Source of the DNA: Opitutales bacterium
GTDB lineage: Bacteria > Verrucomicrobiota > Verrucomicrobiia > Opitutales > PNEW01
Reading direction: 5' to 3'
DNA: 32,000 bases
Assembly (NCBI GenBank): GCA_965219535.1
Contig: CBDCNV010000002.1
Location: 1,230,001 to 1,262,000 of the forward strand
The number at the start of each line of letters is the position of its first letter. Positions within the stretch are counted from its first letter, which is position 1. Positions 4,816-32,000 of this stretch are shown in pieces. Under the pieces are notes generated by a model, which was not told the DNA's origin, searched no databases, and saw nothing but the letters and a program-made list of their open reading frames with translations. The position numbers and the translations under genes were made by a program.

Positions 4816-4880
4816 AATTAATCTCCTATCGAATACCTTAATGATTACTGTATAGCTATTCTTTATTATTCATTCAATCT

Positions 4881-6027: not shown

Positions 6028-6041
6028 GGATTTGTAACTAT

Positions 6042-11469: not shown

Positions 11470-11583
11470 GGTGGAGCGGGCTGCCTGACGGCCATTGCCT
11501 AACACTGCACAGCGACGGCTGTTCCCTAGCACGCTTCTTCAATTACATCATTCTTAAACGCGCTGGGGACAGCCCGTTCCACC
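11470..11583 (+). repeat. A-family palindromic element carrying a B-element insertion in its left arm (copy A2)
   Basis: ggtggagcgggctg[cctgacggccattgcctaacactgcacagcgacggctgt]tccctagcacgc - loop - aaacgcgctggggacagcccgttccacc. A degenerate fragment follows at about 11611-11643. Confidence 0.85.
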
Positions 11584-11670: not shown

Positions 11671-11706
11671 TCTCGAAGAGATCACTCGATAGTGATCTCT
11701 TCGAGA
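11671..11706 (-). terminator. Perfect 16-bp-stem hairpin spanning the stop codon of the Ig-like protein gene (candidate terminator or mRNA 3' stabiliser)
   Basis: tctcgaagagatcact-cgat-agtgatctcttcgaga. The right arm on the + strand encodes the last codons (LEEIT) and the stop lies inside the structure. The downstream mRNA is only moderately U-rich (agtgttaggttttaagtttt). Confidence 0.45.
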
Positions 11707-13907: not shown

Positions 13908-14136
13908 GGTGATCTTTTTAATAGGTTGAATCTCAAAAGGGATGAAATTTCTAAAAAGAGATATATAGGGCGTCAAATGTTATTCTTCTTTTAATGAAAT
14001 CTTGATGGATAGGTTAAGAATACGACGCTATCAAAAATATTTAAGTATATCATAAGCAGTTACTTAATCATAGTGAACAGCATTCAGTGATCTTTATTCA
14101 GTTGAAAGGAACGATAATCAGCAAACGGGTGTAATT

Positions 14137-14167: not shown

Positions 14168-15542
14168 GGTATAGGTTCAAGACATTCTTTACACAAAAGG
14201 TTCAGGACATCCTTTACAGATTGCCAAAGAAAGAAGGATGCTAAGTAAGGGGTATGATGTCATGGAAGGAAACAAATAAAATGGACCAAAGATACCAATT
14301 CGCCCTGGAATCGATGCAACCGGGAGTAAAGATGAACGAGCTGTGTGAAGACTACGGGATCAGCCGACCGACAGGGTATAAATGGAAGAAGCGCTTCCTG
14401 AGCGAAGGGATGGAGGGGTTGCACGAGCGCTCACGCCGACCGCATGGAAGTGTTCAGGAACTATCCGAATCAGTAGTATGTACGCTGATCAAACTCAAGC
14501 ATCATCACCCGACGTGGGGCCCCTACAAGATCCGCGAGCTTTACCAGAGGCGTTACGGGAAGGCCCCCTCAGACTCGAGCGTGAAACGGGTCTTGGAACG
14601 TGCGGGACTGGTGCAAAAGCGTCGGCGCAGAAGCGCTCAAAAAAGCGGACGCCTTTACCGCAGCGTCAAGGCCAGTGGCTGTAACGAAGTGTGGAGCGTA
14701 GACTTCAAAGGGTGGTGGCACACCGTTGATGGCAACCGTTGTGAACCTTTGACGGTACGGGATGAATGGAGCCGCTATGTATTAGAGGTGCGGGTGCTCA
14801 GTTCAGCCCGTAGCGAAGCGGTGCGTGAATGCTTCACAAAACTCTTTGAACGCTATGGACTTCCCGCTTGCATCCGCAGCGACAACGGCAGTCCCTTTGC
14901 CAGTGCCAATGCGGTCCTGGGCCTGAGCAAACTGGCGGCCTGGTGGCTGGCCTTAGGGATCAATCTCGAGCGTGGACGTCCGGGTAAACCCCAGGATAAC
15001 GGTGCCCATGAGCGTCTCCATCGCGATATCAAAGAGGAGTTGCAAAAACATGCCCAGGACGATCTTCGCACCCAACAGGTGGCCTTCGATCTGTGGCGCA
15101 AGACCTTCAATGAAGAACGCCCCCATGCGGCTCTTGCCATGAGCACGCCCTCTGAAATCTATCAGCACAGCTCTCATCCTTACGGTGGCACTCCTGCCGA
15201 TATCAGCTATGATTTGATGACTCGCCGGGTCTCAAAAAGCGGGTCTATCAAACTCGATGGCTTCCAGATTCCTATCTCCACCGCCCTCGCCGGTTGGAGC
15301 GTTGGACTAAAACCACTAGACACGGTACACTTCGATGTTTACTTTGCCACTCTCAGAATCGGTCAGATTGACCTTTCAACGGCTGCTTTCATTGGGGCCG
15401 CTTGCGGCCCCAACAATGCCAGCCAAACCTCTAAAACCGCATAACATTAACTTAACTATATAACCCGATTACCGTTCAGCATCCCTCACAAAGTGTAAAC
15501 CATGTCTTGATCTAAATCTGTAAACCATGTCCTGGTTGTACC
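14168..15542 (+). mobile_element. IS481-family insertion sequence (boundaries approximate, +/- ~10 bp)
   Basis: It has a single DDE transposase ORF. The imperfect terminal inverted repeats each contain two 17-18-nt sub-repeats. Left: caagacattctttacac and caggacatcctttacag. Right: gtgtaaaccatgtcttg and ctgtaaaccatgtcctg. Homology between the flanks of P1 and P2 resumes at about 15553. A possible CCTC direct repeat sits at both junctions. Confidence 0.75.
14254..15444 (+). CDS. IS481-family DDE transposase (integrase core domain)
   Basis: 396 aa. The N-terminal HTH is NELCEDYGISRPTGYKWKKRF. DDE candidates are WSVDFKG, IRSDNGSPF and DNGAHERLH. Confidence 0.9.
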   Translation: MMSWKETNKMDQRYQFALESMQPGVKMNELCEDYGISRPTGYKWKKRFLSEGMEGLHERSRRPHGSVQELSESVVCTLIKLKHHHPTWGPYKIRELYQRRYGKAPSDSSVKRVLERAGLVQKRRRRSAQKSGRLYRSVKASGCNEVWSVDFKGWWHTVDGNRCEPLTVRDEWSRYVLEVRVLSSARSEAVRECFTKLFERYGLPACIRSDNGSPFASANAVLGLSKLAAWWLALGINLERGRPGKPQDNGAHERLHRDIKEELQKHAQDDLRTQQVAFDLWRKTFNEERPHAALAMSTPSEIYQHSSHPYGGTPADISYDLMTRRVSKSGSIKLDGFQIPISTALAGWSVGLKPLDTVHFDVYFATLRIGQIDLSTAAFIGAACGPNNASQTSKTA

Positions 15543-15553
15543 CCTCTATGTAT

Positions 15554-15580
15554 AACACCTAAAACTTAACACCTAACACT
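15554..15580. repeat. Heptamer array (AACACCT/AAAACTT) x4
   Basis: aacacct aaaactt aacacct aacactt. It is paralogous to 11644-11670. Confidence 0.8.
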
Positions 15581-15581
15581 T

Positions 15582-15615
15582 ATCGAAGAGATCACTCAAT
15601 AGTGATCTCCTCGGT
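15582..15615 (-). terminator. Stop-codon-spanning hairpin of paralogue P2 (15-bp stem, one mismatch and one G:U)
   Basis: atcgaagagatcact-caat-agtgatctcctcggt. It is the counterpart of 11671-11706. Confidence 0.4.
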
Positions 15616-17827
15616 AACAACCTCGATCGCATCCCCGTCTTCATTGGCAAAGGTGGCATCGATACTCAGTGTCGGCTGAGGCGTTTCGTCAGACTTGAAG
15701 TTGTTCTGGGTGATCAGGGTTTCAAACCCGGTCGTTGTCGATCCACTCTCCGCAACGACGACTGCGGCACCGTTCGTCTGCAAGAGGTCACCACCGGTGA
15801 TCCTTAACCCGGGGTTACCGGCGGCTACGGTAAAGGAGCCTTCACCGAAGAGAATGTGAGGTACTGCATCGCCATCAGCATCGATATCACCGATCGTTAA
15901 GCGTACTGCGATCGGTACTCCGCGCGCGTCGACACCAACCTTGCCCGTGCTTCCACTGAACACAGCATTCGATAACTGTACCCCTCCCAGTCCCGTGGAG
16001 TTGACTACTTCCACGAGGGCCACATCGGCCTGGGCGTCATAGACCTGTCCTTCGGGGAACAGCGCCTGGTTAAAGGCGTTGATCCTGCCCACCGTGAAGA
16101 TGCTGAAGAAGGTATTAGCGTCCGCTCCATCGATGACCACGCTCGGCTTGCCCGTCACATACTCGACGGCCTGATTGTAGCGTGGTGGGGTATGGCCGGT
16201 GGTAGGAAGGTGGCCGGATCGAGGGTTACAGTAAAGGTCCCGTTGCCTGAGAACTCTACCTGCACAATGTCCTCGTTTTCGTCCATGAAGGATACGCGGG
16301 TGATCTGTCCCGGTTTGGCCTGGAGTTGGACGGACTCTCCGGTGAGTAATATCTGGTCGAAGACGTTGCCGTTGGCATGTTGAATGTCTTCACCGGCGAT
16401 ATCTCCTGAGCCGTCGAGAACGAGGGGAATGGAAGGCGCTGATACGGTAACGACCGCGGTATCGCTGTCCGCTGTCCCACCGGCATTGGTAATCTGTACC
16501 CAGAAACTTGTGCTCGCGGTGAGCGCGCCCGTGTCTAAAGTTCCAGCCGTCGCGCCGGCGACAGGAGCAGCGGTGTCACCGCTGTTGCCGGTGTACCACT
16601 GGTAGGTAAGATCGTCGCCGGTTGCCGCAACGGACAAGCTAGCCGATGCTCCGGATGCGACCTCCTGGCTTGCTGGCTGCGTGGTGATAGAAGGAGCAGT
16701 GGCGGGTGGGGGACCTTCGGAACCGGTGCCCGGGGCGCCGATCGGTGTAAAACCAAAATCGTCAATCGAAGTACGGCCGGACGGATTTACATCACCATCT
16801 ATCAGGACTATCCTGCCAATGCCGCCTGGAGCTCCTAATTCAGCCGCATTAATCCTTGTAAAACCGGGTTTGAAATCAGAGTTAATATTGCTCTCTAAAT
16901 TATCAACCGTAAAGATTAAGTTGTCGTTTGTATCATAGACTTCGATAAAGCCATCAGGATTGATGCCTTCTTTAGGTGCAGTACTCTGAGAGGCGAATGT
17001 ATCAATTTCATAAGCCGGAGTTTCAAAAGTGATGGTTGCCTGCTCACCATCAAATATACCAAACGCAGTGGATGACGAGCGCACATAATCGGTACCATCA
17101 GAAAACTCGACAATAATTGATCCCCCTTCAAACGTAGCAGTATTCGGCGAAGTCCCAATGACCAGCGGTTCGTCCTGACCTGCACCAGGACTGAATTCAT
17201 CAAAATTGCTGTAAACCGTGTTATTCGAGGGATAGTCGGTCAGGGTGAATCCCAGGTCGTCGATCACGAGTTTTCCCGTAACATTAAAAAACTTCACTTC
17301 TCTTATCCCACTGAGGAAATCAAAATCGGTTGTATCAAAAAAACTACCGCTGTCGGCGACAAAGCTGTATAAAGTGGGGTTAGCACCAGGGCTGATATTT
17401 GCCGGCAGTCCTTCGATAATACCGCAATCTCCACAGGTACCTCCGAGTACGATGTTAACTCTTCTGTCGGAAGCCAGAGATGTACCCGTATTAATTTCTC
17501 CTCTTAGCTCAAATTTGCCCCCGCCTGTCGTTTCACCCGCATAAAATTCAAGAAATTGAATCCCCCTGTTGGAGACAATCCTTCCCTCCTGTCCCGGCCC
17601 CAGGTTAAAGCCTTCGTTCCCGAATGTAACTGCGCTGGATCCTCTAAAGTTTCCACCGTGAAACCGACGAGCGTAACCACGTTTGGCTCCACACCGATGA
17701 AGATCGTCCCTTCACCGCTTACGTTTTCGAAATCAGTGAAAATCTCGAGGTCTTGAGGCAGGGCGATGAGAAGAACGGGCGATAAGACTGAGGCAATGAT
17801 GAATGCGAGCGATTTTTTTAATAACAT
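15592..17827 (-). pseudogene. Secreted Ig-like-domain protein, paralogue P2, interrupted by two frameshifts (or two sequencing errors)
   Basis: Three tracked ORFs (17827-17504, 17297-16155, 16158-15592) align colinearly with P1. Break 1 is at 17603-17604, where P1 has GGG (13682-13684) and P2 has GG. Break 2 is a net +2 nt patch at about 16181-16213. The frame between 17600 and 17297 stays open after correcting break 1, as checked by hand near 17297-17340. Confidence 0.75.
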
Positions 17828-18034
17828 ACTGAGCTTTTAATAGATTGAATTTCAAAAGGGATGCAATTTGTAAAAATAGATAGATAAAGCGTCAATTATT
17901 AAACTGATTTTAATGAAATGTTTATGGATTAATAAAAGATACGATGCCATCATATAGTCGTAAGTATATCATGAGTAGTGACTTGAATTATTATGGTTAG
18001 TGTTACTCGTCAGGTGTTAAGTTTTAAGCCGACA

Positions 18035-18138
18035 GGTGGAACGCGGTGCCTGACCGCCATAGCCTTGGCGACGGTTGTTCCCTACCGCGTTTAGAATGTA
18101 GTAATTGAAGAAGCGTGCTAGGGACAGCCCGCTCCACC
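18035..18138 (-). repeat. A-family palindromic element with B insertion (copy A3, inverted orientation)
   Basis: ggtggaacgcggtg[cctgaccgccatagccttggcgacggttg]ttccctaccgcg - loop - gaagcgtgctagggacagcccgctccacc. It ends 68 nt downstream of the stop of the 18206-18436 gene. Confidence 0.85.
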
Positions 18139-18436: not shown

Positions 18437-18551
18437 AGTTTATAATGTTTGATGTTTAAAAGAGTCGAAACGACCAAAAAATTATATTCTTCTTTACCAC
18501 ATACTCACGTATCCCTTTTGACTTTCGAATCCATTGGATCAACTATTGCTT

Positions 18552-18600
18552 CACTGTTCACTGTTCACTGTTCACTGTTTACTGTTCACTTCTCACTTCC
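18552..18600. repeat. Heptamer array (CACTGTT)x7, last units degenerate
   Basis: cactgtt x4, tactgtt, cacttct, cacttcc. It ends 1 nt from the stop codon of the CocE-like gene. The tracked ORF 18449..18637 is a translation of it. Confidence 0.9.
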
Positions 18601-20518: not shown

Positions 20519-20605
20519 GAATTTTTATTAAGATAAGTTGGTTCCCTTCGACTACGCTCAGGGCAAGCAGGGTTCAGGAAGAAAGATATACTAATGACAG
20601 ATACC

Positions 20606-20652
20606 AGGGTTCAGGGTTCAGGGTTCAGGGTTCAGGGTTCAGGGTTCAGGGT
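20606..20652. repeat. Heptamer array (AGGGTTC)x6.7
   Basis: Read directly. The same unit recurs at 22069-22103 and 24265-24283. Confidence 0.95.
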
Positions 20653-22068: not shown

Positions 22069-22103
22069 GGGGTTCAGGGTTCAGGGTTCGGGGTTCAGAG
22101 GTT
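22069..22103. repeat. Heptamer array (RGGGTTC)x5, degenerate
   Basis: ggggttc agggttc agggttc ggggttc agaggtt, starting 9 nt after the stop at 22060. Confidence 0.85.
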
Positions 22104-22142: not shown

Positions 22143-22171
22143 GGTGGAGCGGGCTGTCCCTAGCACGCTTC
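22143..22171 (+). repeat. A-family element, left arm only (copy A4)
   Basis: ggtggagcgggctgtccctagcacgcttc, then unrelated sequence. Confidence 0.8.
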
Positions 22172-22258
22172 TGATCTCTACCGAATGACAATATGAGATT
22201 GCCCTACTTTATTATTTATCTCTTGAGGAAGCCGACGGATAAAGGTTAGATTTAACCA

Positions 22259-22774: not shown

Positions 22775-22880
22775 AGAAAAAACATCCACCTGTTTACTGA
22801 TGTCTAATTACTGTTCACATCTTCACTCAGCGGCCAGGTTGTGAATTGCAGATTGAAAGTTAGTACCGATTTATTCCCTT

Positions 22881-22983
22881 TGTCATCGCGAGGTTGCTTG
22901 TCAACCGTGGCGATCCAGGGGAATATCGGTTGCGTCTGGTAATCCGCCTGGATTGCTTCGTCGCGTTGCTTCTCGCAATGACA
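22881..22983. repeat. MITE-like element, D family
   Basis: tgtcatcgcgagg ... tctcgcaatgaca, with internal paired segments (cgtggcgatccaggggaatatcgg / ccgcctggattgcttcgtcgcg). The tracked ORFs 22804..23145, 22860..23114 and 22894..23142 are translations of it. Confidence 0.8.
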
Positions 22984-23047
22984 AATAAAATATTCCGCAA
23001 TTTGCAATCGACGATCAGAAATCGGAAATCGGCAATTGCCACACTGT

Positions 23048-24247
23048 TCACTTCTTGGTTGGTGGCCAGGGATCGAGACAGGCCCCGGACGGGCGTGTTC
23101 CTGTCGGGCGCCACGGCACGCTGTCATAAGACTGGTATTTAACATCGAGCCACGGTGTCTCTAAACGCGTATGGCCATTATAACGTGATGTCAGTGCAGC
23201 TTCTAAAATGCCACTCGTAAGAACCGTCCGTTCAACGGCGTAGGAGGGCACACCTGTAAGAAACATTTCTTCTACATTTAAAGATAAATAACTGAAATGT
23301 GAATAAGCGCCGTCACCGCCACCATGATACTGGAGATAGAATTCAGTGGCCTGGATCTTGTTATCAATTCTTGCAGCGTAGGCCCAGTCCGCAACATAGC
23401 CGTCTAACATCAGTATTACGCCTTTAAAACCGTCACGATATTCGATGAGAAATAAGGCCGGGTTTTCACATTGGTCTTCCATTCGCCCTTCAGGTTTTTT
23501 TTCAATGCACTCACAAGCAGCCTCAGCTAAATCGTAGGACCATCGCCCCTCTTTGGCGGCTTTCCACACGGCATCGCCCTCTAAACAGGTCACGGCGGCG
23601 ACCCCTGTCTCTCCGCCGGTCCGTCTTTCGGCCATACACTGTAAAACTTCAACCGTATGAAATCCGTAGACATCCAACCCATGATAGCCGATAGCGACAG
23701 CTTCTGTTATAGGTGTATCAAGCTCATGTTCCAACCAGGGCTTGCGCCAGCAGAGGGGAACGGATGAACCCGCCATGAAGGGGGCGTTAAGCTCATTCGC
23801 TCGATCATACATCCATTTTATATCCTGCCAGTTATAGGAGAGGTGCTTGTCGTTAAAGATTGGTACGGATTTTTTACTCGTAGCTAACACCCCGCAAATT
23901 TGTTCCATGAAATACTTTCGTGGGAAAAGTTGTTGTTCTTTTTCATTATAGGCATAATCGCCGTGCTCCGCGACCAGGAGCACCCCGTCGACCGCGAGCT
24001 CATCCCCGCCAAGGGTCAAGGCTTTTACAATCGTCGGATAGATCGGTACATTATGCTCTGCAGCTAACTTGCGGCCCATGTCATTTTCGGGGAAATGATC
24101 GATATACATCGAGGCTATCTCCACGCGCGGTTCAAACAATCCATCATCGGTGGGAAATCCCTTCAGGAATTTCGTCACCATTACATCGGCATGGGAGCGA
24201 GGCCAGTACTCAGTTATTATCGCGGCTATCTTTTTTTTCTTTGGCAT
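23048..24247 (-). CDS. Conserved hypothetical protein, paralogue 1 of 2 (layout reminiscent of Gfo/Idh/MocA oxidoreductases but without a GxGxxG loop)
   Basis: 399 aa, colinear with 29899..31092 and highly similar by eye over the whole length. KIAAIITEYWPRSHADV occupies the position of the Rossmann glycine loop. VDGVLLVAEHGDY and IFNDKHLSYNWQDIKWMYDRANELNAPFMAGSS parallel the iDaV.I.tP..H and EKP motifs of that family. Confidence 0.6.
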   Translation of the reverse strand: MPKKKKIAAIITEYWPRSHADVMVTKFLKGFPTDDGLFEPRVEIASMYIDHFPENDMGRKLAAEHNVPIYPTIVKALTLGGDELAVDGVLLVAEHGDYAYNEKEQQLFPRKYFMEQICGVLATSKKSVPIFNDKHLSYNWQDIKWMYDRANELNAPFMAGSSVPLCWRKPWLEHELDTPITEAVAIGYHGLDVYGFHTVEVLQCMAERRTGGETGVAAVTCLEGDAVWKAAKEGRWSYDLAEAACECIEKKPEGRMEDQCENPALFLIEYRDGFKGVILMLDGYVADWAYAARIDNKIQATEFYLQYHGGGDGAYSHFSYLSLNVEEMFLTGVPSYAVERTVLTSGILEAALTSRYNGHTRLETPWLDVKYQSYDSVPWRPTGTRPSGACLDPWPPTKK

Positions 24248-24264
24248 CTGTCAACCTGCGGTTG

Positions 24265-24283
24265 AGGGTTCAGGGTTCAGGGT
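24265..24283. repeat. Heptamer array (AGGGTTC)x2.7, start of repeated block R2 (24265-24503)
   Basis: agggttc agggttc agggt, followed by the same ggaagatgtcgggctacgccctcggtacagggttca seen at 20650-20688. Confidence 0.9.
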
Positions 24284-24475
24284 GGAAGATGTCGGGCTAC
24301 GCCCTCGGTACAGGGTTCAGCAACTGCTGCTATTCGAGCTATAGCATTTAAAGTGTGAACAGTGAAATACTTTTTAATCGTATTGATCTTAAAATATTCT
24401 GGGTTGTATTTTATCAATATAAATTTCTTTAATTCTTATCTTGTGTATCTTGTGCCTTTTGTGGCTATCTCTCTA

Positions 24476-24503
24476 ATCCGAAATCCAAAATCCGCAATCC
24501 GAA
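24476..24503. repeat. Heptamer array (ATCCRMA)x4
   Basis: atccgaa atccaaa atccgca atccgaa, ending 7 nt before ATG 24511. Confidence 0.9.
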
Positions 24504-24510
24504 ATTGAAT

Positions 24511-25563
24511 ATGTCTGACCTTGAAACGTGGCTTAATTTAACTGTCGAGGATCCTATCGATCCCGATCTTCCTATTTGTGATCCCCACCATCATCTGTGG
24601 GACCGTCCCAATAACCGCTACTTGCTTGATGATGTATTGCAGGACACTGGCAGCGGTCATAACATTGTTAATACCGTTTTTGTCGAATGCAAAGCAGAGT
24701 ATCGGAACGATGGGTCTGAGGCATTTAAGCCGGTAGGGGAGACCGAGTTTGTGCAGAGCCTCGCCGATCAATGCGCAAGTGGGCAGCAGGGCTCGAGCTC
24801 TATCGCCGCGGGGATCGTGAGTCACGCCGATCTCACCCTGGGGGACGCCGTGGCTCCGGTGCTCGAGGCCCATTTGGCAGCGAGTGGCAACCGCTTTCGT
24901 GGGATCAGGCACATTGCTGCTTGGGATGCGAGTGATAGTATACAAAACATTTCTAAATCTCAGAAAAAAAAGGTCCAGGAAAAGAGTCGCATTCCCCTTT
25001 ATAAACCGCCACCGGGTCTGCTCATGGAATCGAAATTTAGAGAGGGTTTTACCTGTTTACAGCAACATGGTTTGAGTTTTGATTCCTGGCTTTTCTATCA
25101 TCAGTTAGGAGAACTCACTGACCTCGCACGTGCCTTTCCGGAAACATCAATAATCTTGGACCATATTGGGGGCCTTCTCGGGATCGGTCCCTATACCGGG
25201 AAGCGCAATGAAGTAATCAAGGCATGGCAAAATAGCATCCAGGAGCTTGCGACTTGTCCGAATGTCACCGTGAAGCTGGGAGGGATGGGAATGCCGATCT
25301 TTGGTTTTGGCTGGCACGAGCAGGACATTCCACCATCCTCAACAGAGCTAGCTGAGGGCATGGCTCCATATTTTAATTTTTGCATCGATAAGTTTGGTGT
25401 CGATCGTTGTATGTTCGAGAGCAATTTTCCCGTCGACAAAGTTTCATTTTCTTACTCCGTGATGTGGAACGCGTTCAAGCGCATCACGAAAGACTTCACC
25501 CCGGAAGAGCGAGCGGCCCTCTTCTACAATACCGCCGTAAATGTCTACCGTTTAAATTCGTAG
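24511..25563 (+). CDS. Amidohydrolase-2 family metal-dependent TIM-barrel hydrolase (COG3618 lactonase-like subgroup)
   Basis: 350 aa from ATG 24511 (the tracked start at 24505 is TTG). The N-terminal metal motif ICDPHHHLWD matches the iD.H.H.W signature of the fuconolactonase-like subgroup. It also has ILDHIGG and FESNFPVD near the C-terminus. Confidence 0.8.
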   Translation: MSDLETWLNLTVEDPIDPDLPICDPHHHLWDRPNNRYLLDDVLQDTGSGHNIVNTVFVECKAEYRNDGSEAFKPVGETEFVQSLADQCASGQQGSSSIAAGIVSHADLTLGDAVAPVLEAHLAASGNRFRGIRHIAAWDASDSIQNISKSQKKKVQEKSRIPLYKPPPGLLMESKFREGFTCLQQHGLSFDSWLFYHQLGELTDLARAFPETSIILDHIGGLLGIGPYTGKRNEVIKAWQNSIQELATCPNVTVKLGGMGMPIFGFGWHEQDIPPSSTELAEGMAPYFNFCIDKFGVDRCMFESNFPVDKVSFSYSVMWNAFKRITKDFTPEERAALFYNTAVNVYRLNS

Positions 25564-25596
25564 AGGCATTACAAAAAATATTCAATCATTCTAATA

Positions 25597-25653
25597 AACG
25601 CGCTAGGGACCAACCGTCGCCAAGGCTATGGCGGGCAGGCAGCGCGTTCCACC
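25597..25653 (+). repeat. A-family element, right arm with B insertion (copy A5; left arm missing)
   Basis: aacgcgctaggga[ccaaccgtcgccaaggctatggcgggcagg]cagcgcgttccacc, starting 34 nt after the stop at 25563. Confidence 0.8.
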
Positions 25654-25731
25654 AATCTCACTTACTAATTATTGGATAAATCCGCATTTCCGCTTCATCG
25701 CATACCCACATTCTCACATCAACGCATTTCC

Positions 25732-25763
25732 CTTTTGACCTTTTGACTTTTTGACCTTTTGAC
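25732..25763. repeat. Octamer array (YTTTTGAC)x4
   Basis: cttttgac cttttgac tttttgac cttttgac, ending 15 nt before ATG 25779. Confidence 0.95.
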
Positions 25764-25778
25764 TCTATTCCATCGAAA

Positions 25779-26570
25779 ATGTCTTTAACTAAAAATCAAA
25801 TATCAGAACTATCCCAGGCCTTAATCCATGCACAAGAGACGGTAACCCCGATAACCAACCCGATCGATCAATACCCGGATATGACGGTTGCTGAAGCTTA
25901 TGCCGTTCAGCGAGCGACATACGAGACGAGAATAAAAAACGGCGATACGGTGGTGGGAGGAAAGGTAGGACTGTCTGCTAAAATTATGCAGGAGGTATTC
26001 AATGCCGATGCGCCGATTTATGGGCGTTTATTTGCTTCGATGGTGGCACTGGAAGGTGAACCCATTTCAATCGGCAGCATGAGCCGTCCGATGATTGAAG
26101 GTGAGACAGCTTTTGTTTTAGATGCTGACCTGAAGGGTCCCGGTGTGACGGTTGGAAAAGCGATGGCGTCGGTTGCCGGAATTATTCCCGCTTTTGAAAT
26201 CGCTGATAGCCGATCAAAAGAAAAACCAAAAGTGGCACAGGATCTTATCGCCGATAGTAGCCTTGCATCCAAGGTGATACTCGGCGGTCAGATCACCCCC
26301 ATTGATGAAATCGACCTGCGTCACATCGGTGTGGTCCTGGAGCAGGATGGCGAGGTCATTGCCACGGGGGCAACCGCGGCGGTTCTCGGTAATCCCATCC
26401 ATTCGCTCGTTAACCTTGTCAATAAACTTGCCGAGTACGACGTCGGCTTATCCGCCGGAGATTTCGTTATTCCCGGCACGCCTCACCCCGCCGTGCCGCC
26501 CGTAGCAGGTTCCTGCTACCGTGCGACCTTTGATCGCTTCGGTTATGTTAAGGTCCACTTTACTGATTGA
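25779..26570 (+). CDS. 2-keto-4-pentenoate hydratase / 2-oxohepta-3-ene-1,7-dioate hydratase family (MhpD/HpcG-like, FAH fold)
   Basis: 263 aa. It has MTVAEAYAVQRA...GGKVGLS at the N-terminus, the metal-binding IEGETAF (E-x-E) motif, and an overall length typical of the family. Confidence 0.8.
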   Translation: MSLTKNQISELSQALIHAQETVTPITNPIDQYPDMTVAEAYAVQRATYETRIKNGDTVVGGKVGLSAKIMQEVFNADAPIYGRLFASMVALEGEPISIGSMSRPMIEGETAFVLDADLKGPGVTVGKAMASVAGIIPAFEIADSRSKEKPKVAQDLIADSSLASKVILGGQITPIDEIDLRHIGVVLEQDGEVIATGATAAVLGNPIHSLVNLVNKLAEYDVGLSAGDFVIPGTPHPAVPPVAGSCYRATFDRFGYVKVHFTD

Positions 26571-26651
26571 AGCGCGGTATTATTACGTAGGATTTTATGA
26601 ATTAAAATCTTCGTCTTCGACCCCGTTTACTTCATAAATATTGCAACCCAG

Positions 26652-26726
26652 GGTGGAGCGGGCTGTCCCTAGCACGCTTCTTGTATTACGACTCGCTCTA
26701 ACGCGCTGGGGACAACGCGTTCCACC
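26652..26726 (+). repeat. A-family palindromic element, no B insertion (copy A6, the empty site)
   Basis: ggtggagcgggctgtccctagcacgc - ttcttgtattacgactcgctct - aacgcgctggggacaacgcgttccacc. Confidence 0.9.
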
Positions 26727-26776
26727 ATAATATTATAGTTAATAATTGAATAGACGAAGACGGGTCTGCGTCCCTT

Positions 26777-27012
26777 TGTCATTGCGAGGAGCGAAGCGAC
26801 GAAGCAATCCAGGGGAATGTATGTTGCAAAATTATTGTCCCAGGATGCTAGGCTTCGCTCAGTTGACAATTGCCGTTCTACAATATTCATTGAGCAACTC
26901 ATGTTTTTTAACGGAGACGGGTATGTGTACCCACAATGACTATTTCCCTGGAATGGAAGATGTCGCTGCGCTCGGTAGCCGCGGTCGGCTTTTAACCTCC
27001 CTCGCAATGACA
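26777..27012. repeat. MITE-like element, D family, longest copy (236 bp)
   Basis: tgtcattgcgaggagcgaagcgacgaagcaatccagg ... cctccctcgcaatgaca. Together with 14 upstream nt it is flanked by a 12-bp direct repeat AATAGACGAAGA (26749-26760 and 27013-27024). Confidence 0.8.
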
Positions 27013-27123
27013 AATAGACGAAGAGGCAGACGTAATCGCAGACGAAGATTTAAATTTCACTACTAACTTGAAAACGATCATTATTCACTATTTACTGATC
27101 TCTAATCACTGATTTTCAAAATC

Positions 27124-28215
27124 ATGGCAACGGATACCATAGCTGCATCTGATTTCGCTGACACGAAAAAGGGTTTGGAAAAAGGATTAGATTGGTACCA
27201 GTGTCCGATCGACAGGAAGGTGCTCAATAAATTGTCGGAGAAAAACGACTGGCAACCCTTTCTTCATATTGTCGCTCAGCTTAGTTTCTCGACCGCTACC
27301 GGCGCATTTGCATTCTGGGCATTCCACCACCTGTCATGGCCCTGGATAGTTCTAGCGGTTTATTTTCACTGCTCTTTTTATAAATTTTTTGGTCACGGCA
27401 CGGGAGGCCATGAGTTATCGCACAAGACGGTATTCAAAACTCAAGCCTTGAACGAGTTTTTCATTCGCATCGTTGGTTTTCTGACCTATTTCAACTATAT
27501 CTGGTTTCGGCACAGTCACGTTAAGCACCATCAATTTACTGTTCACCATGAGCTCGACATGGAAGTCGAGCTTCCACAACAATATCCATGGTACCAAGTT
27601 ATCGGGGCATTTACCTTCAGCATTCGTGACTTCAATCGAATCTTACCCAGGCTTTTTCGAAACGCGTTCGGTCGCCGCCGCGAGGTTATTCTCAAATCAG
27701 TTTGGGAACAGAGAATTACCCCGGAGACAAAGCCGGAAGCTTTGAAAAGAATGGTAAACTTTTCGAGAATCATCCTCGGTGGTCATTTAGCGCTCGCTAT
27801 TGTCTTTATTGCTACGGGAAATTGGATTCTCTTGTTCCTTGTTACCTTTGCGCCATTCATCGCGATGTGGTTTGTTGTTCTTACGCATTTGCCTCAGCAT
27901 AAAGGGATGAAGCCGGATGTCGCGGATTGGAGGCAAAGTACCAGGACCTATCTCGCAGGGCCCATTGTGCGGTTTTTTTACTGGAATATGAATTATCATG
28001 TGGAACATCACATGTATCCGGCTGTCCCGTTTTACCATCTACCTAAGTTGCGCAAGGCGATCGAAGATGACCTCCCCATCGCAACAAAAGGTCTCGTTGC
28101 CACGTGGGTAGATATATTCAAAACGCTCAGGCGTCAGAATAAGGATTCGGACTATTATGCCGAGCTAGTTTATCCAGAGAAAACAGGGTCCGGTGAGCTG
28201 CCAATTGCGGTTTGA
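27124..28215 (+). CDS. Membrane fatty-acid-desaturase-like di-iron oxygenase (paralogue 1)
   Basis: 363 aa. Three His boxes are present: HELSH, HSHVKHH and HVEHHMYP. There are hydrophobic segments before box 1 and between boxes 2 and 3. Confidence 0.8.
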   Translation: MATDTIAASDFADTKKGLEKGLDWYQCPIDRKVLNKLSEKNDWQPFLHIVAQLSFSTATGAFAFWAFHHLSWPWIVLAVYFHCSFYKFFGHGTGGHELSHKTVFKTQALNEFFIRIVGFLTYFNYIWFRHSHVKHHQFTVHHELDMEVELPQQYPWYQVIGAFTFSIRDFNRILPRLFRNAFGRRREVILKSVWEQRITPETKPEALKRMVNFSRIILGGHLALAIVFIATGNWILLFLVTFAPFIAMWFVVLTHLPQHKGMKPDVADWRQSTRTYLAGPIVRFFYWNMNYHVEHHMYPAVPFYHLPKLRKAIEDDLPIATKGLVATWVDIFKTLRRQNKDSDYYAELVYPEKTGSGELPIAV

Positions 28216-28226
28216 TTTTTAGAATT

Positions 28227-28423
28227 AAAATCTTTGTCTGCGTTTACTTCATAAATATTGCAACCCAGGGTGGAGCGGGCTGTCCCTAGCACGCTTCTTG
28301 TATTACGACTCGCTCTAACGCGCTAGGGATCAGCCGTCGCCAAGGCTATGTCGGACAGGCAGCGCGTTCCACCATAATATTATAGTTAATAATTGAATAG
28401 ACGAAGACGAGGACGAAGATTTA
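28227..28423. repeat. Composite hairpin module M3: inverted hexamer termini enclosing A element with B insertion
   Basis: The left terminus is aaaatctttgtctgcg and the right terminus is agacgaagacgaggacgaagattt. The core is A7. Confidence 0.8.
28269..28373 (+). repeat. A-family palindromic element with B insertion in right arm (copy A7, the filled site)
   Basis: It is identical to A6 through ...ctctaacgcgct. It then reads aggga[tcagccgtcgccaaggctatgtcggacagg]cagcgcgttccacc. Confidence 0.9.
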
Positions 28424-28492
28424 ACACTGATTTCTAATTATATTTCTCAATAAAATCTTTACTCAAAACCGCCCGCACTTATTTTCAAAAAT

Positions 28493-29575
28493 ATGACATC
28501 TGCAACGGATACCATCCTTGAAGCTGATTACTCCGATACGAGTAAAGGTAGGGAAAAAGGCCTGGACTGGTACCAGTGTCCAATCGACAGGAAGGTGTTT
28601 TCTGCATTAATGAAAAAAAATGACTTGAGGCCTCTTCTCGATAATGTAGGACAACTCGGTTTTTCTTTCGTTACGGGAGCTATTGCCCTCTGGGCATTTC
28701 ACAACTTGTCATGGCTCTGGGTTGCTGGTGCAGTCTATTTTCATTGTTCCTTTTACGGCTTTTTTGGTAGTGGAACGGGAGGACACGAGTTATCGCACAG
28801 GACGATGTTCAAAACGCCGGCATTGAATGAATTCTTTATTCGCATCAATGGATTTTTGACCTGGTTTAACTTTATTTATTTTCGGCACAGTCACGTAAAG
28901 CACCATCAGTTTACCGTTCATGATGACCTCGACATGGAAGTCATGTTACCGCAAAAGCTGCGATGGTACCATTGGATATTTGCATTTACGTTCCACCCTC
29001 AAAACATTTATATAAATTTTTCGAATAAATTCAGGCGTGCCTTCGGTCGACGCCGCGAATTTATGCTTAAATCCGTCTGGGACCAGCGCATTTTTCCGGA
29101 GTCAAAACCAGAGGCATTAAAAAGGTTGGTGAATTGGGAGAGATTCTTAATCATAGGTCATACTGCCCTTGCAGTTGTTTTTATCGCCTCCGGTAATTGG
29201 ATACTTGTGCTCCTGGTTACCTTTGCCCCTTTCCTCGTTGGCTGGTTTGGGCTCATCACACATATGCCCCAACATGTCGGGATGAAACCGGACATTGCGG
29301 ATTGGCGGCAGAGTACAAGAACTTATCTCGCCAGCCCCTTTGTTTCTTTTTTCTACTGGAACATGAATTACCACGTGGAGCATCACATGTATCCAGCTAT
29401 ACCCTATTACAATTTACCTAAGCTGCGAAAAGCGATTGAAAGTGACATGCCCATCGCACCGAAAGGCCTATTCGCAACCTGGAGGGCAATACTCAAAACA
29501 CTCAGGCAGCAGAAAGAAGATCCGAACTATTATGCTGAACTGGTCTATCCGGTGAAGACGGTGACTAATAATTAG
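28493..29575 (+). CDS. Membrane fatty-acid-desaturase-like di-iron oxygenase (paralogue 2)
   Basis: 360 aa, colinear with 27124..28215. The His boxes are the same: HELSH, HSHVKHH and HVEHHMYP. Confidence 0.8.
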   Translation: MTSATDTILEADYSDTSKGREKGLDWYQCPIDRKVFSALMKKNDLRPLLDNVGQLGFSFVTGAIALWAFHNLSWLWVAGAVYFHCSFYGFFGSGTGGHELSHRTMFKTPALNEFFIRINGFLTWFNFIYFRHSHVKHHQFTVHDDLDMEVMLPQKLRWYHWIFAFTFHPQNIYINFSNKFRRAFGRRREFMLKSVWDQRIFPESKPEALKRLVNWERFLIIGHTALAVVFIASGNWILVLLVTFAPFLVGWFGLITHMPQHVGMKPDIADWRQSTRTYLASPFVSFFYWNMNYHVEHHMYPAIPYYNLPKLRKAIESDMPIAPKGLFATWRAILKTLRQQKEDPNYYAELVYPVKTVTNN

Positions 29576-29623
29576 TGATCGAAGAATAATCTTCGTCCCT
29601 TAAATTAATTACTATTTTATCAT

Positions 29624-29696
29624 GGTGGAACGGGCTGTCCCTAGCGCGTTGAAGGATTGTAATTAAAGAAGCGTGCTAGGGACAGCCCGCTCCACC
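29624..29696 (-). repeat. A-family palindromic element (copy A8, inverted orientation)
   Basis: ggtggaacgggctgtccctagcgcgtt - loop - gaagcgtgctagggacagcccgctccacc. Confidence 0.9.
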
Positions 29697-29712
29697 CGGT
29701 TTATCAATCTCT

Positions 29713-29770
29713 GGAGGTCCACGCGGTGCCTGTCGGCCATAGCCCATAGGGCGACGGCTGATCGTGGCCG
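29713..29770 (-). repeat. Single degenerate A arm carrying a B element (copy A9)
   Basis: ggaggtccacgcggtg[cctgtcggccatagcccatagggcgacggctg]atcgtggcc. Confidence 0.7.
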
Positions 29771-29898
29771 CTGAGAAGCTTGAATATATAATTTTATTTA
29801 ATCAATTGACGAAGAGGCAGACGCAGACGAAGACGAAGATGATGAATTAACGCCAAAGTTTTATCTGAATTGTGAATAATCTTTATTCAAATACCTCT

Positions 29899-31092
29899 TC
29901 AAGAAACCACACACGCGCCCGTCGGACGGGGTCCGGTAGGTCGCCATCGAAGCTCAGAGTATGACTTATATTTTACGTCGAGCCAGGGTGTCTCAATGCG
30001 TCGATGTCCTTCGTATCGGGATGTCAGCGCGGCTTCTAAAACGCCGCTTGTCAGTAAGGTTCGTTCAGCGGGGTAGGTCGGTGATCCACTGATAAACATT
30101 TCTTCAATATTGAGCGACAAATAGGTGAAGTGATTGTGCGCTCCTTCAGCGCTGCCTTCAGCGCTGCCATGACCCTGACAATAAAATTCTGTCGCCTTGA
30201 CCTGATTGTCGACCCTGGCTGCATAAGCTAAATCTGTAACATACCCGTTTAACATTAAAACCGCGCCCTTCAAACCATCTCGGTATTCGATCAGAAATAG
30301 GGTGGGATTTTTACAGTGGTCCTCCATCTGTCCATCAGGTTTATTTACTATGCAAGCACAGGCTGCCTCGGCCAGTGTTCTCGACCATTGCCCCTCATTG
30401 GCCGCTTCCCACACCACCTCACCCTCTAAGCAGGTTACTGCTTTGACACCGGTCTCACCGCCAATGCGTCTTTCAACCATGCATTGCAGGACCTCAAGGG
30501 CGTGAAATCCATAGATATCCAGCCCGGAAAAACCGATGGCGACGGCCTCTTCAATCGGACTTTCCATATCATGCTCAAGCCAGGGGTTGCGCCAGCACAG
30601 AGGAAGTGATGAACCGGCCATGAAGGGAGCTCCGAGTTGCTTTACTCGATCATACATCCATTTAATATCATGCCAGTTATAGGAGAGGTGCTTGTCGTTA
30701 AAAATCGGTACCGCTTTCTCACTCGTCGCCATGACCCCACAGATTTGCTCCATGAAGTATTTCCTCGGATAAAGATGCTGTTCCTTCTCGTTCCATGCGT
30801 AATCTCCATGTTCTCCGATTAAGAGCACACCATCAACAGCGAGTACATCCCCACCCAGCGTTAATGCTTTTACAATACTGGGAAAGATCGGAATGTTAAA
30901 TTCGGCACTGAGTTTTCGGCTCAAATCCCCTTCGGGAAACTGATCGACATAAAGTGAAACAATATCAACACGCGGTGTAATCATGCCCTCATCGGTAGGA
31001 AAACCCTTGAGGAATTTCGTCATCATGACGTTGGCATGGGAGAAGGGCACGTACTCCGTAATGATTGCCGCAATCTTTTTTCTTTCAGCCAT
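29899..31092 (-). CDS. Conserved hypothetical protein, paralogue 2 of 2 (same family as 23048..24247)
   Basis: 397 aa, beginning MAERKKIAAIITEYVPFSHANVMMTKFLKGFPTDEG. It is colinear with its paralogue apart from a short insertion (GSAEGSAEGAH vs GGGDGAY). Confidence 0.6.
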   Translation of the reverse strand: MAERKKIAAIITEYVPFSHANVMMTKFLKGFPTDEGMITPRVDIVSLYVDQFPEGDLSRKLSAEFNIPIFPSIVKALTLGGDVLAVDGVLLIGEHGDYAWNEKEQHLYPRKYFMEQICGVMATSEKAVPIFNDKHLSYNWHDIKWMYDRVKQLGAPFMAGSSLPLCWRNPWLEHDMESPIEEAVAIGFSGLDIYGFHALEVLQCMVERRIGGETGVKAVTCLEGEVVWEAANEGQWSRTLAEAACACIVNKPDGQMEDHCKNPTLFLIEYRDGLKGAVLMLNGYVTDLAYAARVDNQVKATEFYCQGHGSAEGSAEGAHNHFTYLSLNIEEMFISGSPTYPAERTLLTSGVLEAALTSRYEGHRRIETPWLDVKYKSYSELRWRPTGPRPTGACVVS

Positions 31093-31110
31093 TGTATCAA
31101 ACGATGTTTG

Positions 31111-31138
31111 AGTGTTAGGTGTTAAGTTTTAGGTTTTA
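31111..31138. repeat. Heptamer array (RGTKTTA)x4, inverted relative to 11644-11670 and 15554-15580
   Basis: agtgtta ggtgtta agtttta ggtttta. Confidence 0.8.
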
Positions 31139-31186
31139 ATTAGATTCTAAATAAAATGGCTATTGTCATTAATAGATTTTATTAAT

Positions 31187-31261
31187 TGTCATTGCGCCTG
31201 CCGGCCATAGCCTTGACGACGGATGAAGAATCATGCAATTGCGGGAGCCGCGGCAATCCAG
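31187..31261. repeat. Partial D-family element interrupted by a B element (second copy at 31510-31584)
   Basis: tgtcattgcg[cctgccggccatagccttgacgacggatg]aagaatcatgcaattgcgggagccgcggcaatccag. Confidence 0.7.
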
Positions 31262-31349
31262 AAAGTTATAATACCCTTACTCAGAACGATTAACCCTAAG
31301 ATGTAAACCTAACACGGTCTTGTGCGCCTTAGCGTGTCAGTACTCTTCC

Positions 31350-31381
31350 CTTTTGACATTTTGACGTTTTGACCTTTTGAC
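31350..31381. repeat. Octamer array (NTTTTGAC)x4 (copy 1 of the duplication)
   Basis: cttttgac attttgac gttttgac cttttgac. Confidence 0.95.
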
Positions 31382-31672
31382 TAAAGTTAATCGAAAATGA
31401 GCTCTGACGATCAAACCACCTACCCCGATGAAGAGGCGCGCTGCCGATTCTGGACGGAGCATATGGATCGCGGCTACGATGGCTATTGTCATTAATAGAT
31501 TTTATTAATTGTCATTGCGCCTGCCGGCCATAGCCTTGACGACGGATGAAGAATCATGCAATTGCGGGAGCCGCGGCAATCCAGAAAGTTATAATACCCT
31601 TACTCAGAACGATTAACCCTAAGATGTAAACCTAACACGGTCTTGTGCGCCTTAGCGTGTCAGTACTCTTCC

Positions 31673-31704
31673 CTTTTGACATTTTGACGTTTTGACCTTT
31701 TGAC
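31673..31704. repeat. Octamer array (NTTTTGAC)x4 (copy 2), ending 15 nt before ATG 31720
   Basis: Identical to 31350-31381. Confidence 0.95.
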
Positions 31705-31719
31705 TAAAGTTAATCGAAA

Positions 31720-32000
31720 ATGAGCTCTGACGATCAAACCACCTACCCCGATGAAGAGGCGCGCTGCCGATTCTGGACGGAGCATATGGATCGCGGCTAC
31801 GAGCTGGTTCAGTCTATGGCAAAGTACGAGGTCAATGAGTGTGGCGAGGGCGTGGTTTCAATTCCGGAAGCAGCTGAGAAAGCAGGGGTAAAAATGCTTT
31901 TTTCTGAAACTAAAATTGCCGGTAACCTGGATCGGATATATGTTATCCGTGAGAGTATCATGCCGGACCTCCTGGCGATCGCGCTTGATATGAAAGAGCG
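31720..32000 (+). CDS. Hypothetical protein, 5' fragment (runs off the window)
   Basis: It is not in the ORF track because no stop is reached. ATG 31720 opens a frame that stays open to nt 32000: MSSDDQTTYPDEEARCRFWTEHMDRGYELVQSMAKYEVNECGEGVVSIPEAAEKAGVKMLFSETKIAGNLDRIYVIRESIMPDLLAIALDMKE. It shares its leader (ATCGAAAATG) and octamer array with the gene at 25779. I cannot assign a family. Confidence 0.6.
   Translation, partial: MSSDDQTTYPDEEARCRFWTEHMDRGYELVQSMAKYEVNECGEGVVSIPEAAEKAGVKMLFSETKIAGNLDRIYVIRESIMPDLLAIALDMKE

Follow-up and report, generated by a model that had tools for sequence, protein, structure and literature searches.

Nested palindromic repeat modules downstream of genes in a marine Opitutales lineage

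Introduction

What are the composite palindromes that recur just past the stop codons of ordinary genes in an uncultured Verrucomicrobiota genome, and how did they come to be there? The question is raised by a 32,000-nucleotide (nt) stretch from an Opitutales bacterium (GenBank assembly GCA_965219535.1, contig CBDCNV010000002.1, positions 1,230,001 to 1,262,000), referred to below as the window. At four places in the window, modules M1 to M4 (Table 1), runs of a hexamer and of its inverted complement enclose two AT-rich arms and a central palindrome, the A element. Such an arrangement might be a mobile repeat, a structure that serves the host, a site of gene exchange, a switch, or an accident of a genome rich in short arrays.

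All four are members of a single non-coding repeat family that belongs to a marine Opitutales lineage and is about 190 nt long in its clean form. We assign a probability of roughly 0.55 to the reading that this family is nested, non-autonomous selfish DNA, akin to MITEs (miniature inverted-repeat transposable elements) and to REPINs (pairs of repetitive extragenic palindromic, or REP, sequences that form hairpins), which was copied as a unit and later became a substrate for recombination.

Architecture of the modules

M1-M4 have their parts in a common order. A run of TTCGTC hexamers that follows (A)ATC is succeeded by an AT-rich arm, the A element, a second AT-rich arm, and finally a run of GACGAA hexamers that ends in GAT(TT). 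We refer to the hexamer-terminus element as H and to the left and right AT-rich arms as spL and spR. A is an imperfect palindrome of 73-75 nt that consists of GGTGGAGCGGGCTGTCCCTAGCACGC, a 25-nt loop and GCGCTRGGGACAGCGCGTTCCACC; the two ends of the module are the pair ATCTTCGTCTTCGTCTGCCTC ... GAGGCAGACGAAGACGAAGAT. This shared, ordered architecture had been proposed for the four loci in the original prediction, made by reading the letters of the window, and the sequence is as it was described there. Indeed, a search of the window for TTCGTCTTCGTC with at most one mismatch gives 8 matches, all inside M1-M4, on the plus strand at left ends and on the minus strand at right ends. Shuffling gives an expectation of 0.26 matches, and 8 were reached in none of 100 shuffles.

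The prediction wrote the termini as (TTCGTC)n and (GACGAA)n. Both termini are present, but array length varies more than that formula implies: M1 has about five units on the left and about two on the right, the left terminus of M4 is a single unit, and that of M3 is degenerate (TCTTTGTCTGCG). The A element also varies in size, being 105 nt in M3 owing to a 30-nt insert, called B, in its right arm. Each of the four modules begins 12-34 nt past a stop codon, directly 3' of a gene as had been proposed, and M1 sits between convergent genes. The surrounding genes of the window are ordinary metabolic genes, and the open reading frames (ORFs) that overlap M2 have no Pfam match.

Copies in related genomes

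Does the same arrangement occur elsewhere? Exact matches to the A arm in species-representative genomes mark 43 loci, and these come only from three Opitutales metagenome-assembled genomes (OY829953.1, CBDANS01 and JAJFLV01), which share 80-94% coding-DNA identity with the window. Marine metagenome contigs from the Joint Genome Institute (JGI) add 38 loci, of which some correspond, as orthologues with about 85-90% identity, to parts of the window. (Collected loci are cited by number, with the prefix L.) The A arm is absent from the viral contigs searched, and phage carriage is rejected. The order of parts seen in M1-M4 recurs in L002, L008, L011, L013, L027, L031, L040, L043, L044, L048, L049, L059, L079 and L080. 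Further copies of the same ordered architecture, on which the original prediction had staked its case, are therefore found in the three Opitutales genomes and in marine metagenome contigs; they occupy many unrelated loci in at least four genomes, and clean copies measure 186-237 nt.

The hexamers are linked to A and oriented with respect to it. Around 83 non-redundant A left arms, TTCGTC exceeds GACGAA by 49 to 4 on the upstream side (binomial p = 7e-11), and GACGAA exceeds TTCGTC by 38 to 3 on the downstream side (binomial p = 1e-8). Complete A copies carry hexamers on both sides in 19 of 64 cases and on one side in another 11. When the comparison is begun from the arrays instead, an A core is found within 330 nt, on the inner side, for 33 of the 44 intergenic hexamer arrays of a non-redundant set, and most of those remaining are truncated modules. 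Arrays more than 1 kb from the seed match, which constitute a less biased subset, belong to modules, to half modules that abut genes, and to rare H-only units.

H and A are nevertheless separable elements. Two H modules have no A (L025 3741-3794 and L077 2411-2450), and many A copies have no H; the neighbours of the latter are GTGTTAA/GTTTTAA-type arrays, GTCAAAA octamers, GTGAACA heptamers, or no array at all. The simplest history is a single entry of A into an H element, followed by spread of the H::A composite. The neighbours of H modules are gene 3' ends in 21 cases and 5' ends in 8 (p = 0.024).

Structure and conservation of the repeat

The termini turn out to be more than plain arrays. 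They form a degenerate inverted repeat of about 30 nt, with units in a position-specific order: the consensus of the right end is GACGAA GACGAA GAGGYA GACGNA GACGAA GAT, and that of the left end is ATC TTCGTC TTCGTC TRCCTC TTCGTC. In an alignment of 23 termini that starts at the outer end, GACGAA is outermost throughout, as the pattern used for their collection required; GACGNA comes second, 12 of the 23 have GAGGCA or GAGGTA in third place, and further GACGAA units follow. Left ends mirror right ends (..TTCGTC TGCCTC TTCGTC..). A position-specific unit order implies that the termini derive from a single ancestral end, about 30 nt long, and hence that the module has been copied as a unit. Together with the flank-orientation bias and the share of arrays with an inner A, it also disposes of the worry, raised with the prediction itself, that the arrays might be ordinary microsatellites unlinked to A.

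The two AT-rich arms are not equivalent. The consensus of spL (..ATAAATCTTGCAACCCAG) differs from that of spR (nTGATATTGTAGTAAATAACTG), and each keeps a fixed relation to A, with spL at the left arm and spR at the right arm, so that the inner part, spL-A-spR, is one asymmetric unit.

It had also been proposed that the whole module can fold into one long interrupted hairpin. A folding check upholds this in part, in that whole units fold as interrupted hairpins that are stabler than shuffled sequences, with z scores of -2.9 for M3 as DNA, -3.7 for M3 as RNA, -5.2 for M1, -7.6 for M2 and -7.0 for M4. That stability, however, stems from A and the termini: the left and right flanks of one copy pair no better with each other than do flanks of different copies (duplex energies at 12, 25 and 40 nt). 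Since the spacers are not complementary, the long hairpin comes down to A plus the termini, with the AT-rich arms as large internal loops. The same comparison leads us to reject two histories for the 12-40 nt beside A, namely that A inserted into older palindromes specific to each copy, or that a palindrome grew outward by template copying, because a copy's own flanks pair no better than foreign ones.

Conservation was scored per column over 27 non-redundant 75-nt copies of A from three species-level lineages and from metagenomes, all found via the left arm. It amounts to 99.6% in the left arm, which was the search arm used to find the copies, 93.7% in the right arm, 78.5% in the loop, where the centre is most variable, and about 45% in the 40-nt flanks. 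The consensus of A is identical in the three species-level lineages. Moreover, the pairing of the two arms is imperfect, and most copies share the positions of the faults (a G-T pair and the mismatches G/G and A/C); duplication of a master sequence accounts for this better than selection for pairing in each copy independently.

Smaller elements nested within the modules

The modules are themselves hosts to smaller elements. B is about 30 nt long, with the core CCGTCGCCAAGGCTATGGCGG, and occupies a fixed point in an arm of A, which in the right arm follows GGGA and in the left arm, at the mirror site, follows GGGCTG. In the window it is found in A arms at 28330-28359 (the M3 insert), 25605-25634 and 18046-18075, and B is also present in the loop of C elements. 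The same point in the A arm can be occupied by F, an insert of about 24 nt (GATTCGACTNAGCTCGTCGCAGG) seen in L079 (2633-2656), in L041 (within the A at 6878-6976) and in L049 (940-962). B and F are unrelated in sequence and are both present, in tandem, in L049; they look like very small site-specific insertion elements.

Other elements sit within the hexamer termini. These are C (GGAGGGCCACGC..GTGGCC), E (GACCCGTCTTCGCAG..) and D, the last being a separate MITE family with the terminal inverted repeats (TIRs) TTGTCATTGCGAGG / CCTCGCAATGACAA. D also yields spurious ORFs, namely 26669-27013 on the minus strand, 26746-27066 on the plus strand and those around 22804-23145. In some relatives the nesting is deeper than in the window (L013 4560-4990). 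The description of the modules as Russian dolls is accurate, but the judgement that such nesting is unusual has to be softened, since nested small palindromic repeats are already documented in other bacteria.

Table 1. Positions of the modules, their parts and other repeat features (window coordinates, unless a locus number is given)
Feature	Position	Strand	Description
M1 module	6040-6229	+	Left terminus 6040-6072, spL 6073-6116, A 6117-6190, spR 6191-6213, right terminus 6214-6229
M2 module	26604-27051	+	Parts in the following seven rows
M2 left terminus	26604-26621	+	H-type terminal inverted repeat, AAAATC TTCGTC TTCGAC; collinear with the orthologous L049 flank up to 26616
M2 spL	26622-26651	+	...CATAAATATTGCAACCCAG; semi-conserved in composites; always adjoins the A left arm
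M2 A element	26652-26726	+	75 nt: 26-nt left arm, 25-nt loop, 24-nt right arm
M2 spR	26727-26752	+	ATAATATTATAGTTAATAATTGAATA
M2 right terminus, proximal part	26753-26774	+	GACGAAGACGGGTCTGCGTCCC, including an E-like fragment
D element in M2 right terminus	26775-27015	+	241-nt MITE, TIRs TTTGTCATTGCGAGG / CCTCGCAATGACAAA
M2 right terminus, distal part	27016-27051	+	TAGACGAAGAGGCAGACGTAATCGCAGACGAAGATTTA
M3 module	28227-28423	+	Left terminus 28227-28241, spL 28242-28268, A 28269-28373, spR 28374-28399, right terminus 28400-28423
M4 module	29588-29843	+	Left terminus 29588-29599, arm 29600-29623, reversed A 29624-29696, arm 29697-29712
M4 right part	29713-29843	+	C element with B-like insert 29713-29779, AT-rich 29780-29807, right terminus 29808-29843
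A copy with B-type insert in left arm	11470-11583	+	Flanked by K arrays (TAACAC/TAAAAC-type); no hexamer termini
A copy with B insert	18035-18138	-	Adjoined by a K array (18014-18028); no hexamer termini; kept in L021
Half A, left arm only	22143-22172	+	
Half A, right arm with B insert	25595-25653	+	Kept in L049, there with an F insert too
Other D copies	4880-5013, 22869-22985; L019 4419-4550; L014 6745-6860		
TTTTGAC arrays	25725-25771, 31343-31381; L049 3500-3528; L079 2485-2513		Start codons at 25779, 31397 and, in L049, 3542
Short tandem arrays (among others)	3034-3056, 18550-18597, 20605-20652, 22070-22103, 23014-23036, 24260-24283, 24475-24505, 25731-25763, 31351-31381, 31674-31704		
Ig_7 gene family	11682-13976, 15592-17297; L007, L010, L016, L018, L021, L033, L036, L037, L040, L068-L070		

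Orthologous loci

Comparisons at orthologous sites bear on the age and behaviour of the modules. In the window, the order M2, desaturase-1, M3 is found where L049 has a single module, between a FAA-hydrolase gene and desaturase-2; L049 lacks desaturase-1. The L049 module is reversed, with the inner unit of M2 matching its reverse complement at 121 of 131 positions (about 92%), and the flanking coding sequence of L049 is 86-90% identical to that of the window. The L049 module is thus as well conserved as the genes beside it, which argues that the module at the M2 site is older than the split of the two genomes.

M2 and M3 are both full modules, directly repeated. Near identity of the inner units goes with two desaturases that are only 71% identical in protein, a disparity that had been noticed in the window by eye. 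The conclusion drawn from it in the original prediction, that the modules were homogenised or inserted after the gene duplication, survives to the extent that M2 and M3 have a more recent common ancestor than the desaturases; the module is no recent arrival, however, considering the likeness of about 92% with L049. With an old module at the M2 site, the similarity of M2 and M3 is better explained by duplication of a module, or by recombination between modules, at the gain or loss of desaturase-1. Either desaturase-1 was deleted in the L049 lineage, or a circle carrying desaturase-1 plus a module was gained by Campbell-type integration in the lineage of the window.

A second case involves M1. 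L079 matches the window on both sides of M1, and the DHDPS-family gene (5116-6027) is absent there (window 4815-6040, L079 2438-2565). The L079 module is again reversed: the inner unit of M1 agrees with its reverse complement at 108 of 139 positions and with the forward sequence at 80 of 117. The left termini of M1 and L079 match in the same orientation (31 of 34 positions), the odd CTGTCTC unit included. Orientation is unchanged in seven other single-copy orthologous comparisons and so differs in 2 of about 9; beside the multi-copy Ig-like gene family, A is found in both orientations. Given that the termini are inverted repeats, recombination or template switching between the termini, a flip of the whole element, and re-insertion are inseparable here.

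M4 is missing at the orthologous site in L039 and from L049. The gene order in this part of L049 is also different, with the homologue of the gene at 31397 lying between desaturase-2 and a 397-amino-acid (aa) gene (window 29576-31400, L049 3394-4560), which is a local rearrangement.

A second assembly of the same organism (ERZ25067264 contig ctg829431, L082) is identical to the window save for three differences, namely one AGGGTTC unit (24265), a 1-nt indel, and one 323-nt tandem copy fewer. The one-unit difference argues that arrays slip. The indel falls in a G run (window 25282, L082 2158) and splits the amidohydrolase gene at 24505-25563 into two ORFs in L082; it is either a sequencing error or a real frameshift variant. 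The perfect 323-nt tandem duplication in the window (31156-31802) takes in the opening codons of the gene at 31397 together with a TTTTGAC array, a K array and a B-like piece, and L082 has a single copy. Metagenome contigs that are 99.9% identical and come from different samples are collinear through the modules, and structural polymorphism of modules within the population was seen in none of the assemblies compared.

Origin and spread

How might a composite of this kind have formed and spread? The selfish-DNA reading would start with A residing inside an older H element. Inserts of B and F would have entered at their one fixed point in the arms of A, and C, D and E would have entered the termini; the H::A composite would then have been copied as a unit. 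Copies would persist just downstream of stop codons because insertions are presumably tolerated there. Within resident copies, arrays may change in length by slippage, and orientation may change by recombination or template switching between a module's own inverted termini, or else by excision and re-insertion. The modules would also constitute portable homology, such that recombination between two of them could add or remove the gene that lies between, perhaps as with desaturase-1.

We infer that the spread was by transposition, and can only argue as to the enzyme involved. The lack of target-site duplications disfavours ordinary cut-and-paste by a DDE enzyme, and suggests instead a single-strand enzyme that recognises hairpins (HUH/Y1, like the REP-associated tyrosine transposases, RAYTs) or else spread driven by recombination; no gene for such an enzyme was found in the searched loci.

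Several results weigh against the selfish-DNA reading. No direct repeat that could be a target-site duplication was found at the outer ends in L040, L043, L079 or the paired ends of M1-M4; the flanks of A itself are typically TAA-A-TTA, a pattern that the palindrome itself, if extended, would also give. Neither the window nor about 0.75 Mb of loci yielded an autonomous element whose ends match. About 0.75 Mb around A copies was also searched for a transposase of the RAYT or Y1 type, and none was found, a weak negative that was obtained by tblastn with sequences of YafM and of the IS200 and IS608 TnpA proteins, and by Pfam analysis of the first 150 of 194 short ORFs (at most 450 aa) in loci L001-L043. 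The tblastn matches were at chance level only (E of at least 0.18), and the best of them, the one weak candidate for a transposase beside A, is spurious since it lies inside a D element. The top Pfam families of the 150 ORFs, counting those with more than one member, do not include Y1_Tnp, and the only transposases among them are of the rve type. In addition, no near-identical copies at unlinked sites were seen among the copies compared, and nothing thus points to recent transposition; a cleanly empty site was not found either, the whole intergenic region being different where M4 is missing; and the two assemblies of the same organism show no module polymorphism. Finally, the cross-species conservation of the A arms could reflect a host function instead.

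The spacers of non-orthologous composites are only 65-80% identical, and, together with the want of near-identical unlinked copies, this indicates an old family with no evidence of recent bursts.

The sole insertion sequence (IS) of the window is an IS481-like element (14168-15580, transposase 14254-15444) between two Ig-like genes; it was considered as a parent of the modules and rejected, its inverted repeats being unrelated to the module termini, and copies 94% identical to it occur in another species-level genome (L039, L032). The commonest family near A copies is the PhyH (phytanoyl-CoA dioxygenase) domain, found in 12 of the 150 ORFs.

How, then, should the modules be classified? They resemble MITEs in being small and non-coding, with many dispersed copies and TIRs of about 30 nt that share a unit order; they lack the flanking target-site duplication. 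A resembles a REPIN, with inverted, highly conserved arms, a variable spacer and a hairpin fold; its arm GGTGGAGCGGGCTGTCCCTAGCACGC has no GTAG or CGTC at the end and only a 3-bp internal stem, judged by published REP criteria (PMC3733652). With A lacking the REP tag and the module lacking the MITE duplication, the family is filed here as working like these elements, membership of neither being proven.

Alternative explanations

The strongest alternative, which we consider unlikely but worth serious attention, is that the modules are a host-function structure of the kind attributed to REPs and to bacterial interspersed mosaic elements (BIMEs). The hairpin would end or pause transcription, shield the upstream mRNA from 3' exonucleases, or bind a nucleoid or topology protein, and the A arms would be the recognition site of a protein or RNase. 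Such a role would suit the start of modules 12-34 nt after stop codons, their preference for gene 3' ends and their stable predicted folds, and REPs lie mostly downstream of coding regions, where they are plausibly transcribed (PMC3733652). It would also suit the 94-99% conservation of the A arms across copies and across species with 80-90% coding identity, with no lineage-specific consensus, and the L049 module that is as close to M2 as the flanking genes are to their counterparts.

Other features are harder to reconcile with a dedicated host structure. A terminator scan found no canonical intrinsic terminator (short GC-rich stem, small loop, U tract), only weak 7-bp partial matches on the minus strand in the A left arm, and A, with a stem of about 25 bp and a loop of 25 nt, does not qualify as one. 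Rfam 15 gives nothing at gathering thresholds over the window, only sub-threshold chance matches in 25500-30000, and a known RNA family is rejected. Orientation to the upstream gene is not fixed, being reversed in M4, L049 and L079; the two termini of one module are often very unequal in length; and the spacers show no pairing covariation. Many copies are halved or truncated, modules carry other inserts of up to 241 nt, and two relatives have no M4 at the orthologous site. Selfish DNA could at the same time have a host role of the REP/BIME type, for which the conservation of the A arms across species is the best support.

If M2 and M3 can bracket a gene that a relative lacks, could modules be portable crossover sites, where a gene-plus-module circle integrates at a resident module by a Campbell-type event, or from which it is lost, as a homology-based analogue of the integron attC site? 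Developed into a gene-cassette system, this would have single genes between H::A modules excise as circles and re-integrate at any resident module, with the hexamer termini letting the core flip. We regard the crossover sites and the cassette system alike as improbable. Desaturase-1 does lie between direct, nearly identical full modules, and L049 has one module and no desaturase-1; desaturases only 71% identical do not point to a recent tandem gene duplication. Gene content beside modules differs among relatives, with the DHDPS gene absent in L079 and an extra gene in L049, and half modules abut genes at several loci. The desaturases nonetheless provide one informative case, and a simple deletion, through homologous recombination of two repeats, would explain it just as well. 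At the DHDPS difference there is no pair of flanking modules, and the genes are ordinary metabolic ones on both strands. No recombinase, invertase or integrase gene is present in the window and none was found nearby, and the modules have no R''/L''-L'/R' core sites (GTTRRRY), so that integron attC sites proper are rejected. Were the cassette idea true, gene gain, loss and rearrangement in these marine Opitutales would be channelled through nested palindromes, mobilised possibly by a divergent HUH or recombinase protein.

It is very improbable that the modules are invertible switches, in which the inner unit would flip at the inverted termini and alter an outward promoter or terminator for the neighbouring gene. 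The reversed orientation in 2 of about 9 single-copy comparisons, and the occurrence of A both ways round beside paralogous Ig-like genes, might suggest an inverton, as might a weak outward sigma-70-like match (GGGACA, 16 nt, TATTAT) across the A right arm and spR in M2. The orientation differences, however, are between species-level lineages; the same-organism assemblies and the 99.9%-identical contigs are collinear, and the window has no invertase gene. The promoter-like match agrees at 9 of 12 positions and such sites are not enriched over shuffles, and a flip at inverted termini looks the same as re-insertion.

Chance, or ordinary microsatellites that happen to lie near A, can be dismissed despite the 6-8-nt tandem arrays in almost every intergenic region of the genome, given the 8 matches against 0.26 expected, all in modules, the strict inverted orientation around A, the 75% of intergenic arrays with A on the inner side, the position-specific unit order of the termini and the conserved spacers.

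Relation to known repeat systems

Literature searches found no description of a nested repeat set in marine Opitutales. The family is apparently new and undescribed, but it exemplifies a type of system that is already known rather than a novel one.

Among published systems, the nearest parallel is the REP dimer within a longer palindrome (PMC3733652). Di Nocera et al. (2013; PMC3733652) described REP dimers regularly embedded in longer, family-specific palindromes, as in GTAG-15 of Anabaena variabilis and CGTC-1 of Halothiobacillus neapolitanus, and found Opitutus terrae to be rich in GTAG REPs. As in the modules, a conserved inverted pair of short repeats is central in a longer family-specific palindromic wrapper; the wrapper rarely or never occurs without its core, most copies lie downstream of genes, and the CGTC type has no known dedicated transposase. 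The differences are that the A arms are 25 nt long, lack an end tag of GTAG or CGTC and do not form 8-9-bp stem-loops of their own, and that the module wrapper has hexamer-periodic ends of about 30 nt, two non-complementary AT-rich arms and a host from another phylum.

REPINs consist of invariant arms and a variable spacer (Bertels and Rainey 2011, PMC3116915). The REPIN/RAYT system shares with A the near-invariant inverted arms, a less conserved spacer, tens of extragenic copies per genome, half copies (singlets), no target-site duplication, and a consensus kept across related species (PMC3116915). Unlike in that system, no RAYT gene was found near sampled A copies, the GTAG tag is lacking, and the hairpin is regularly wrapped in a second element. 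REPs are known insertion targets of IS elements (PMC1525189).

Bacterial MITEs such as Correia (Correia repeat enclosed elements, CREE), Nezha and Chunjie are likewise non-coding elements of 100-250 nt with TIRs, a stable predicted hairpin and dispersed intergenic copies whose presence or absence differs between relatives (Delihas 2011, PMC3184786). The modules differ from them in that direct repeats are lacking at their flanks, that no parent IS sharing their ends was found, and that those ends are internally periodic.

The BIMEs of Escherichia coli are mosaic intergenic modules in which palindromic units and short motifs follow a fixed order, mostly at gene 3' ends, and their functions include the binding of IHF, gyrase and Pol I. 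The fixed-order mosaic at gene 3' ends is a shared feature; the sequences and the organism are unrelated, and hexamer-array ends are not part of BIMEs. In heterocystous cyanobacteria, small dispersed repeats (SDRs) of 21-30 nt are said, in work of Elhai et al. from 2008, to be inserted at fixed points in other small repeats, and the genomes are reportedly crowded with intergenic arrays of the short tandemly repeated repetitive (STRR) heptamer type. These offer parallels to B and F in A and to the 6-8-nt arrays; the phylum and the sequences are different.

Other repeats of the window

Most larger intergenic regions carry tandem arrays with 6-8-nt units, among them TTTTGAC, AGGGTTC, CTGTTCA, AATCCGA and TAACACC/TAAAACT, which resemble the cyanobacterial STRR. 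A cyanobacterial source for the window, which heptamer arrays might suggest, is rejected, as the nearest genomes are those of the Opitutales. The TTTTGAC octamer arrays precede start codons by 8-25 nt, read in the same direction as the gene, and are followed by a conserved TCGA(A)AATG. Between convergent genes, about 75 nt that contain no A are enclosed by an inverted TTTTGAC pair (2938-2957 and 3034-3056).

Genes with the Ig_7 (CHU_C-associated) domain form a multi-copy, often tandem family with 73-88% DNA identity between copies. At the 3' end such genes have a TAACAC/TAAAAC array as well as a hairpin (GAGATCACT..AGTGATCTC), and usually also an A, which may point either way. The second copy in the window is apparently split, into ORFs at 15592-16158 and 16155-17297. 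Two paralogous genes of about 398 aa (23048-24247 and 29899-31092) have no Pfam match and about 75% DNA identity, and both lie beside repeat-rich intergenic regions.

Implications

The current understanding of bacterial repeat elements is not overturned by these modules. What they provide is a record, apparently the first, of a rich collection of miniature palindromic repeats, nested one in another, in uncultured marine Opitutales, and a concrete case in which a REPIN-like hairpin is regularly wrapped in a second element with internally periodic ends. Such repeats can break short-read assemblies and create spurious ORFs, as at M2. They also coincide with gene-content differences between close relatives, which makes them useful markers of genome plasticity. 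If a mobilising enzyme is found, the near-invariant 25-nt arms of A would define its recognition site.

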